From IMG/VR virus record IMGVR_UViG_2718218139_000011: a DNA stretch of 45,230 nucleotides; one strand, 5' to 3'. Every line of letters begins with the position of its first letter. Positions within the stretch are counted from its first letter, which is position 1. This DNA is from a virus (taxonomy: Duplodnaviria; Heunggongvirae; Uroviricota; Caudoviricetes). The position numbers and the translations under genes are program-made. This document shows positions 1,149 through 3,735 of the stretch, piece after piece. Under the pieces are notes generated by a model. It had not been told where the DNA came from, ran no database searches, and saw only the letters and a list, made by a program, of their open reading frames with translations.

Positions 1149-1294
1149 TCATTCTCCTGTTCTGCCTGTATCACTGCCCACTTCATCAAGCCCCTTAACA
1201 TCCTGCCACGGCCCGTCACCAAACCTGACCTGCAAATGCTGAAAAAAACCCTGAACCCGTGTGGCATCTTTGGGGTCAAGAAAGGTCAGTCCGG
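1149..1294 (-). pseudogene. Displaced 3 prime end of the side tail fibre gene, separated from its body by IS600
   Basis: After removing the IS and one copy of the CGG duplication the tail fibre frame continues ...ALIT-GLTFLDPKDATRVQGF... to a stop at 1149..1151. Confidence 0.55.
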
Positions 1295-1358
1295 TGAGGT
1301 AGCCTGAGTTTAACGGACACTCCTTCCTGAAATAGAATGGCATCAGAAGGAGCTAATA

Positions 1359-1661
1359 ATGAGCAGAAAAACCCAACGTTACTCTAAAGAGTTCAAAGCC
1401 GAAGCTGTCAGAACGGTTCTTGAAAATCAACTTTCGATCAGTGAAGGCGCTTCCCGATTATCTCTTCCTGAAGGCACTTTAGGACAATGGGTTACCGCCG
1501 CCAGAAAAGGGCTCGGTACTCCTGGTTCCCGCACGGTGGCTGAACTGGAATCTGAAATTCTGCAACTGCGTAAGGCGTTAAATGAAGCTCGCCTTGAGCG
1601 AGATATATTAAAAAAAGCAACAGCGTATTTTGCACAGGAGTCGCTGAAAAATACGCGTTAA
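1359..1661 (+). CDS. IS600 OrfA (HTH transposase N-terminal component)
   Basis: 100-aa ORF MSRKTQRYSKEFKAEAVRTV...; A AAA AAA slippery run at 1610..1616 leads in the -1 frame into orfB. Confidence 0.9.
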   Translation: MSRKTQRYSKEFKAEAVRTVLENQLSISEGASRLSLPEGTLGQWVTAARKGLGTPGSRTVAELESEILQLRKALNEARLERDILKKATAYFAQESLKNTR

Positions 1662-1696
1662 TCGAACAATGGCGACAACAATTTCCCATTGAAGCG

Positions 1697-2515
1697 ATGT
1701 GTCAGGTATTTGGTGTATCCAGGAGCGGTTATTACAACTGGGTACAGCATGAACCCTCAGACAGAAAACAAAGTGATGAGCGGCTAAAACTGGAGATTAA
1801 GGTGGCACATATCCGCACTCGCGAAACATATGGAACCCGGCGGCTCCAGACGGAGCTGGCAGAGAATGGCATCATCGTTGGTCGTGACCGACTGGCACGT
1901 CTTCGTAAGGAGCTAAGGCTACGCTGTAAGCAGAAACGCAAGTTCAGAGCGACTACGAACTCGAACCACAATCTGCCAGTTGCGCCAAATCTGCTGAACC
2001 AGACGTTCGCTCCTACAGCACCAAATCAGGTCTGGGTGGCGGACCTGACGTATGTTGCCACACAGGAGGGATGGTTGTACCTCGCTGGCATCAAAGATGT
2101 TTATACGTGCGAAATTGTCGGCTACGCCATGGGAGAGCGCATGACAAAAGAGCTGACAGGTAAAGCCCTGTTTATGGCGCTCAGGAGCCAGCGCCCACCT
2201 GCCGGGCTAATCCACCACTCTGATCGAGGTTCACAGTACTGCGCATACGATTACCGGGTCATACAGGAGCAGTTTGGTCTGAAAACATCAATGTCGCGTA
2301 AAGGTAACTGTTACGACAACGCTCCGATGGAAAGCTTCTGGGGAACGCTGAAAAATGAGAGCCTGAGCCACTATCGTTTTAATAACCGGGATGAAGCCAT
2401 CTCAGTAATACGGGAATACATTGAGATTTTCTACAATCGTCAGCGTCGTCACTCTCGTCTGGGGAATATCTCCCCGGCAGCCTTCAGGGAAAAATATCAT
2501 CAGATGGCTGCTTAA
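1697..2515 (+). CDS. IS600 OrfB (DDE transposase catalytic component; made as OrfAB transframe fusion)
   Basis: 272-aa ORF in -1 frame relative to orfA; frame open from the slippery site; IS3-family integrase-like sequence. Confidence 0.9.
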
Positions 2516-2558
2516 AAAAAGAACAAATGGTAGTGTCCGCTATTGCCAGTACACCTCA

Positions 2559-3735
2559 CGGTGATGAGCGCACCATCTGTATCCGGGAACCAGCCATGGC
2601 TGTTTGTCTCAATAATGTTTCCCGGCCCCAGACGAAAACGGATTTGTGTCTCCCCCGGGTCGCCCTTCGGTCCCTGAGGTCCGGTTGCCCCCACCGGGCC
2701 AGCCGCACCTGTTTCTCCTTTCGGTCCCTGTGGGCCTGCCGGGCCTGCCGCACCGGTATCTCCCTTTGGACCCTGTGGACCTGCATTTCCCGTCAGACCG
2801 GTCTCTCCCCGCTCTCCCCTGTCACCTTTCGGCCCCTGCGGGCCTGCCGGACCAGCATCACCTGCCGGTCCCCGTTCGCCGGTTGCCCCGACAGGGCCGG
2901 TGTCACCGCGCTCTCCCTTATCACCCTTCGGCCCCTGAGGACCCGCGGGCCCCTGTTCCCCCTTTGGCCCGGGAGGTCCCACCACGGTGGGGATTCGGTT
3001 TACGGCCTCTTCCGCCGCTATCCTGCTTTGTTCCGCTGACTGTGCGCTTTCTGCTGACTCCCGGGCTTTTTCTGTTGCGGTCGTTGCATCCCTGGCTGCA
3101 TTACCGGCTGCACTTTCTGCCGTCTTTCTTGACAATTCAGCTTCTGCTGCACTTTGTAATGACTCACTGGCTTTTTGAGCGGCCGCAGAGGCCGAGGACG
3201 AGGACGCCTCCTCTGACTGCTTTGCAGCGGCTGCACTTTCTGCCGCCTGCCGGGCTGACTCCGATGCCTCCTCTGCTGAAGTATCAGCATTTGCGGCGCT
3301 CGCTTCCGCCTTACTGGCTGATATGCCGGCATTCCTCGCGGACGTCTCTGCTTCTCCGGCATTCTTCTTCGCCTCCTCTGCGTGACGCGCTGCTTCTTCC
3401 ACCATCAGTTCAAAACGACGCAGTGCCTCCGGACGGACGTCATCCTCCGACATGGCACCGAGAAAATCATTCAGCGTCCCCGGTTGAGAATCTTCATACA
3501 CGGTGATGGTCCCGGCATGTGACGGCGGGAATCCTTCCACCAACAGAATGACGCTGTACTGACCGTACTCAACGTCCATGCTGTAACGCCCGGCTTCATC
3601 CGGATTTTCTGAGGCCAGCGTGTTCACCACCACAGTGGTACTGTTACGTTTTGCTTTCAGCTGGATTGTGCAGTTCTGTACCGGTTTTCCTGTGCCGTCT
3701 TTCAGTACACCTGAAATCTTTACTGCCATATTCAC
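2559..3735 (-). pseudogene. stf: Side tail fibre gene (Stf-like, collagen-like Gly-X-Y repeats) interrupted by IS600
   Basis: Track ORF 2512..3735; the last 15 codons ([15 protein letters not shown]) are read from IS600 sequence; N-terminal part resembles lambda-type side tail fibres. Confidence 0.8.

Follow-up and report, generated by a model that had tools for sequence, protein, structure and literature searches.

Insertion of IS600, with a 3-bp target-site duplication, into an EPclA-type tail-fibre gene of a lambdoid prophage

The DNA analysed here (IMG/VR record IMGVR_UViG_2718218139_000011; 45,230 nucleotides, called the window in the following) represents a defective lambdoid prophage of E. 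coli. Near its left end a gene for an EPclA-type collagen-like tail fibre runs on the minus strand, and an intact copy of the insertion sequence (IS) IS600 lies inside it in the opposite orientation, in codon 391 of 437. That this copy was inserted into the fibre gene with duplication of the triplet CGG is, in our judgement, close to certain. The locus contains the following features (aa, amino acids; ORF, open reading frame).

878-1147, minus strand: ORF of 89 aa consisting of a Phage_fiber_C (PfC) domain alone (Pfam PF06820, 9.7e-35)
1149-1294, minus strand: 3' end of the fibre gene, orphaned by the insertion: 47 codons and the stop codon, coding for the rest of the PfC domain; identical to intact alleles
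1292-1294: left copy of the target-site duplication, CGG
1295-1321, plus strand: left terminal inverted repeat, with the first bases of the element, TGAGGTAGCC...
1359-1661, plus strand: IS600 orfA, 100 aa, with HTH_Tnp_1 (Pfam PF01527, 1.5e-20)
1610-1616, plus strand: A7 slippery run for a -1 frameshift; the orfB frame is -1 relative to orfA and is open from 1598
1697-2515, plus strand: IS600 orfB, 272 aa from the first ATG, with the DDE transposase core (Pfam rve, 3.2e-26)
2532-2558, plus strand: right terminal inverted repeat, with the last bases of the element, ...GTACACCTCA; also the source of the last 15 codons and the stop codon of the truncated fibre gene
2559-2561: right copy of the target-site duplication, CGG
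2512-3729, minus strand: truncated EPclA-type collagen-like tail-fibre ORF, 405 aa (390 native and 15 IS-encoded)

In the ORF list, the fibre gene extends from 3735 to 2512 with a GTG start and 407 aa; from the ATG at 3729 it has 405 aa. Since the annotated homologues and the published EPclA proteins begin at the ATG at 3729 (MAVKISG...), not at the GTG at 3735, the lengths are taken as 405 aa for the present form and 437 aa for the restored form. The native part ends in ...DGALIT, from which the reading frame runs into the right end of IS600, and the last 15 residues are IS-encoded, as the preliminary description of this locus had claimed. The first of the 15 foreign codons, GTG, is a hybrid with one base from CGG and two from the IS. 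Excision in silico of the IS and one CGG gave a 437-aa fibre that ends in ...ALITGLTFLDPKDATRVQGFFQHLQVRFGDGPWQDVKGLDEVGSDTGRTGE* with the stop codon TGA at 1151-1149, so the in-frame C-terminus ending at 1149 that had been described was recovered. The restored C-terminus reads ...DEVGSDTGRTGE, and positions 1152-1178 are identical to the published EPclA reverse primer (PMC3368898). The stop codons of orfB (TAA, 2513-2515) and of the truncated fibre gene (2514-2512, opposite strand) overlap in the palindrome TTAA. The common end point of the fibre frame and the transposase frame is an accident of the phase in which the IS was inserted.

By Pfam, the restored fibre is composed of phage_tail_N (PF08400) at residues 1-133 (profile positions 1-133 of 134, E = 1e-68), an Ala/Ser/Glu-rich region visible in the translation at about 134-250, collagen repeats (PF01391 in two stretches, with a Gly-X-Y run at about residues 251-361) and Phage_fiber_C (PF06820) at 363-426. 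PF03406 (Phage_fiber_2) repeats were not found in the fibre by Pfam. The PF06820 match of the restored protein covers profile positions 1-64 of 64 with 120.8 bits and spans the excision joint. In the interrupted protein, positions 1-28 of 64 are left with 44.8 bits, and 47 native residues are lost, so the fibre is indeed truncated at present. The statement that the insertion is later than the fibre gene is true but trivial.

The duplication is as clean as had been proposed: CGG stands at 1292-1294 and at 2559-2561, and it is present once in the empty site of the relatives. A 6-bp duplication (CGGTGA) was also considered, because the target too reads TGA after CGG. Two further IS600 left ends in the window, at 43421 and 43493, have flanks unlike those of the fibre copy and likewise start at TGAGG. 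The TGA after CGG therefore belongs to the target, the longer duplication is ruled out, and the duplication is 3 bp. A match of 3 bp between two flanks has in itself a chance of 1/64. When the flanks were joined with a single CGG, however, they formed an unbroken 400-bp stretch for which at least 25 complete E. coli genomes, O26-, O103:H2- and O121-type strains among them, have a match of 100% identity. The empty-site query was covered to at least 80% in 696 of 5,426 complete E. coli genomes. The genomes that have any copy of the fibre segment have a median of 10; the fibre gene is thus a prophage gene that occurs in several copies. The uninterrupted empty site in intact genomes is the decisive evidence for a simple insertion.

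The preliminary description could be checked in related prophages on two further points, the homology of the restored C-terminus and the sequence downstream of it, and both comparisons supported it. The restored fibre and the annotated intact protein WP_032212660.1 are both 437 aa long and are identical at 430 of 437 positions, and their C-terminal parts do not differ. The intact locus of this type in strain 97-3250 consists of hyaA, tRNA-Ser, an espV fragment, a gene with EspF repeats (TccP-like), the 89-aa ORF, the fibre gene, lom and J; its fibre is annotated as a 437-aa 'prophage tail fiber N-terminal domain-containing protein', with which the restored fibre agrees at 430 of 437 positions and throughout the C-terminal part. 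Ten further loci encode an identical 250-aa TccP-like protein, and all ten have an intact fibre gene. In nine of them the fibre is 437 aa long and matches the restored fibre at 421-430 of 437 positions (7-16 differences, 96-98% identity). The tenth (L023) has a fibre of 440 aa, and its last 60 residues do not differ from those of the restored fibre. The 89-aa ORF starts one base after the fibre stop codon in all ten loci.

The IS600 copy occupies positions 1295-2558 on the plus strand, with boundaries read off the sequence, and is intact with 1,264 bp, which we take to be the reference length of IS600. IS600 belongs to the IS3 family and was originally described from Shigella sonnei. Members of this family transpose by a copy-out/paste-in route via a circular intermediate, with the OrfAB transposase that is made by frameshifting. 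In the window copy, a -1 frameshift at the A7 run is predicted to yield an OrfAB of 385 aa, and near-identical IS600 copies are labelled 'programmed frameshift' by NCBI. In addition to rve, orfB matches rve_2, rve_3 and HTH_21 of Pfam, and it scores 334.7 bits against the NCBIfam IS3 family transposase model NF033516 (cut-off 160). The inverted repeats are imperfect (28-nt arms, 71% complementary; 23 of the 40 terminal bases match between the two ends) and are of the TG...CA type, with TGAGGT... at one end and ...ACCTCA at the other. Copies annotated by NCBI as 'IS3-like element IS600 family transposase' in finished genomes are 99.6-99.9% identical to the window element over the full 1,264 bp. 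Two consecutive, partly overlapping ORFs with a -1 frameshift, imperfect TG...CA repeats, a 3-bp duplication and near-identity to the named element identify it as IS600 of the IS3 family. There is no difference between the element itself and the named IS600, and the insertion site alone is particular to the strain. The intact ORFs and ends, together with three identical or near-identical copies in 45 kb, suggest that the element may be active in transposition. A 3-nt target sequence and amplification in non-O157 E. coli that produce Shiga toxin (STEC) have been reported for IS600 (PMC9397093).

The copy in the fibre gene and another full copy, at 43493-44756, show 100% identity. None of the 5,426 complete RefSeq E. 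coli genomes contains either filled junction as a single contiguous match, and the exact left junction has no match in the GTDB species representatives. The exact 405-aa truncated product was found on two contigs only, one of which (PVMG01000001.1, GCA_003015325.1) is identical to the window. The identity of the IS copies and the rarity of the filled junctions and of the product indicate that the insertion is recent and confined to one lineage. Separate IS600 insertions were found in the module of the fibre gene and the 89-aa ORF at five other positions, in other E. coli strains (L002-L006). Four of them have their own duplications:

Strain 10153: IS600 in the collagen region, duplication TCT
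Strain 2014C-3655: IS600 in the same module, duplication CCC
Strain NIID080884: IS600 inside the 89-aa ORF, duplication GTC
O121 strain RM8352: IS600 just past the 89-aa ORF, duplication TCC

In strain 90-3040, IS600 lies 7 bp from the window site without a duplication (GTC versus CAC) and has unrelated early phage genes on its far side. This arrangement is a later rearrangement.

At the other end of the window, a cluster of IS600 sequences breaks off a ydfE-like gene at 43421, so that residues 1-70 are left (remnant at 43210-43420) of a protein that has 816 aa in relatives. Neither the window nor the next 5 kb contains a homologue of xis or int, and the cluster runs straight into yccA. Since the integrase end is lost, the prophage is unable to excise by its own means. 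The cluster occupies 43421-45230 and continues at 11860-15266 of L008; it is nested and rearranged and is followed by the chromosomal yccA gene. Its order is IS600 bases 1-72, the full plus-strand copy at 43493-44756, bases 876-70 inverted, and a further full copy on the minus strand. CAG stands on both sides of the first full copy, whose two flanks are not contiguous. The arrangement fits a history in which one IS600 entered another, the DNA between inverted copies was then inverted, and a flanking stretch was deleted. The same arrangement at the right end is found in CP014670.1 (L009). The two identical copies at 1295-2558 and 43493-44756 are direct repeats with about 40.9 kb, almost all of the prophage body, between them. 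Homologous recombination of these copies would remove the phage and leave tccP, the 89-aa ORF and the 3' remnant of the fibre gene.

At least six separate IS600 events in a module of about 1.9 kb, in different strains (the window and L002-L006), could mean that IS600 prefers the fibre/PfC module or is selected in it, either by disabling side fibres or by fixing the neighbouring effector gene. That all recovered insertions have one orientation, and that two identical direct copies bracket the prophage, would agree with this idea. However, the orientation bias stems from the construction of the query, and the insertion sites and duplicated triplets have no common motif. A genome has about 10 modules and a strain has 15-40 IS600 copies, the DNA is dispensable, and a few hits in 5,426 genomes would be about what is expected under neutrality. 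It can be argued, therefore, that the other insertions in the module need no special explanation, and we consider targeting or selection very improbable. A wider proposal would hold that IS600 hits on the EPclA fibre/PfC-ORF module are recurrent and favoured in IS600-rich attaching-and-effacing E. coli, that the direct copies, one inside the fibre gene and the other at the integrase end, prepare the phage body for being lost or immobilised with tccP kept, and that excision by the IS-excision enhancer (IEE) makes the lesion reversible; we consider it very improbable. Another explanation is that IS600 lies at a recombination joint or beside an IS-adjacent deletion and that its flanks were never contiguous. 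Products of recombination do exist nearby, as in strain 90-3040 and in the rearranged cluster at the right end of the window, but the fibre copy has the same 3 bp on both flanks, and joining these flanks restores the full-length frame with a complete Pfam domain and gives a sequence identical to the intact 400-bp stretch. This explanation is refuted by the empty-site match, and we assign it next to no likelihood. A misplaced IS copy in the assembly of a repeat-rich genome is equally far-fetched: the genome, with its many copies of IS600 and about ten fibre paralogues, is hard to assemble and the record is at contig level, but the contig is of chromosome scale (5.2 Mb), a misjoin would not duplicate exactly 3 bp right at the ends of the IS, and comparable insertions with duplications of their own are seen in genomes that were finished independently.

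We return to a simple insertion of IS600 into the fibre gene and consider its consequences. An IS600 copy entered codon 391 of the 437-codon gene and duplicated CGG. The gene stands at the stf position, after J and lom, of a lambdoid prophage that carries a tccP/espFU-like effector gene and lies between hyaA and yccA. Translation of the fibre now passes into the right end of the IS and stops there after 15 codons, and the product lacks its last 47 residues, including 36 of the 64 PfC positions. Experiments have shown that PfC acts in trimerisation and that it makes up the knob at the C-terminal end of a trimer shaped like a dumbbell (Ghosh et al. 2012, PMC3368898). This knob is presumably distal and binds the receptor. 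No solved PfC structure was matched significantly by sequence (best E-value 0.23). The coiled-coil and collagen parts would probably still allow the truncated fibre to form trimers, but it would lack a folded tip. The side fibre of this prophage is thus most likely non-functional. Against this view, the coiled-coil region trimerises alone (PMC3368898), so the truncated protein may still assemble. The role of EPclA proteins as side tail fibres is strongly suggested though unproven, and PfC as their cell-binding end is argued for by the same authors without proof (PMC3368898). The insertion itself is uncontradicted.

The insertion may also affect the 89-aa ORF. On the minus strand the sequence at the fibre stop codon is ACAGGAGAATGACATGAAT, with an AGGAG box, a spacing of 6 nt and the ATG at 1147, one base past the TGA (TGAcATG). 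The ribosome-binding site and start codon that the preliminary description placed immediately after the restored stop codon are therefore present, and with them that description is borne out on every point. The 89-aa ORF is 32% identical to the PfC of the fibre itself. It has no match to any tail-fibre-assembly family and matches only PF06820 in Pfam, though it stands at the position of tfa in lambda. Its product may be a chaperone or may take part in the distal knob as a partner. Translational coupling to the fibre stop codon would be lost, as the ORF now lies past 1.26 kb of antisense IS and is cut off from the promoter side of the fibre gene. Its expression from the late operon is probably lowered. 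A promoter and terminator scan of positions 700-3900 revealed no compensating outward promoter at the left end of the IS; the counts did not exceed those of shuffled sequence.

The gene next to this module, at 1-753 on the plus strand, is an intact TccP/EspFU-like type III effector gene that is convergent with the fibre module (Pfam EspF, 5.5e-109). It encodes four 47-residue EspF repeats in 141-bp tandem units at about 256-740. Between it and the fibre module, a hairpin followed by a T-run can be read in the sequence at about 842-864; it is absent from the list of the terminator scan. Farther to the right, a replication-region gene at about 38095-39151 on the minus strand, which in a relative (L010) forms one ORF of 356 aa, is here in two frames, with residues 1-138 in one and 108-356 in another and the switch at about 38740-38840. 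Either a frameshift mutation or a homopolymer sequencing error accounts for this split. The cargo genes include an AraC-family regulator (237 aa, 31069-31782) near the Q antiterminator region and a ParD/ParE toxin-antitoxin pair at about 34740-35302 (from the L008 gene calls). No stx genes were seen between Q and the gene for a 645-aa SASA/DUF6645 esterase (27776-29713). An exact protein look-up gave no match for a spurious 181-aa ORF at 42601-43146.

These results are of value mainly for annotation. The 405- or 407-aa 'tail fibre' is the product of a pseudogene with a chimeric tail, and the 146-bp stretch at 1149-1294 is an orphaned gene end and not intergenic DNA. The locus exemplifies the erosion of prophages by IS600 expansion among pathogenic non-O157 E. 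coli. IS600 has struck this prophage at least two times, once within the fibre gene and once at the integrase end, and the adjacent type III effector gene stays intact. The biological effect of the fibre insertion is probably small, because the integrase end is already lost and the genome family has about 10 paralogous fibre genes. It is a textbook IS insertion in a prophage gene of a known family, an ordinary and well-understood event, and it opens no new question.

Among the closest known systems are the EPclA proteins that E. coli O157:H7 encodes, such as ECs2717 in prophage Sp14. ECs2717 adjoins a tccP-type gene, as the window fibre gene does. EPclA proteins have a canonical length of 437 aa and the domain order PfN, coiled coil, collagen and PfC, with a coiled-coil region (PCoil) of about 116 aa and a single collagen domain of about 111 aa (PMC3368898), and the restored fibre is like them in length and in domain order, with its Ala/Ser/Glu-rich stretch at the place of the coiled coil. 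PfN and a single collagen domain are present in the window protein as it stands. A complete PfC and a length of 437 aa are obtained only after excision, so the window gene is a disrupted member of the EPclA family. Unlike EPclA, the window protein is cut within PfC and ends in 15 foreign residues. Its length of 407 aa from the GTG equals that of short forms of EPclA that occur naturally (407 aa; collagen domain of 81 residues), so the damage is not revealed by length alone.

The insertion is also like lacZ::IS600 of STEC O121:H19, in which IS600 lies near the 3' end of the gene in the opposite orientation and abolishes the function of lacZ (PMC9397093). In that strain IEE restores lacZ, and it excises IS600 either precisely or with flanking deletions (PMC9397093). 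By analogy, the lesion in the fibre gene could in principle be reversed through IEE, but fibre revertants, unlike those of lacZ, would have no selection comparable to growth on lactose.

The third parallel is lambda itself. The side fibres of lambda speed adsorption and are dispensable. The stf gene of laboratory lambda (lambda PaPa) is reportedly frameshifted, a finding said to go back to Hendrix and Duda in 1992. Like lambda PaPa, the window prophage is lambdoid, its putative side-fibre gene downstream of J and lom is broken, and its J-based tail tip is intact. The two lesions differ, a one-base frameshift in lambda PaPa and an IS in the window. The fibres differ too, since lambda Stf has Pf2 repeats whereas the window fibre has a collagen domain and a PfC tip. 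The term 'side tail fibre' used in the preliminary description is unproven for this class of proteins (PMC3368898) and is suggested by gene position and shared domains: the window fibre has in common with lambda Stf the PfN domain and the place after lom.

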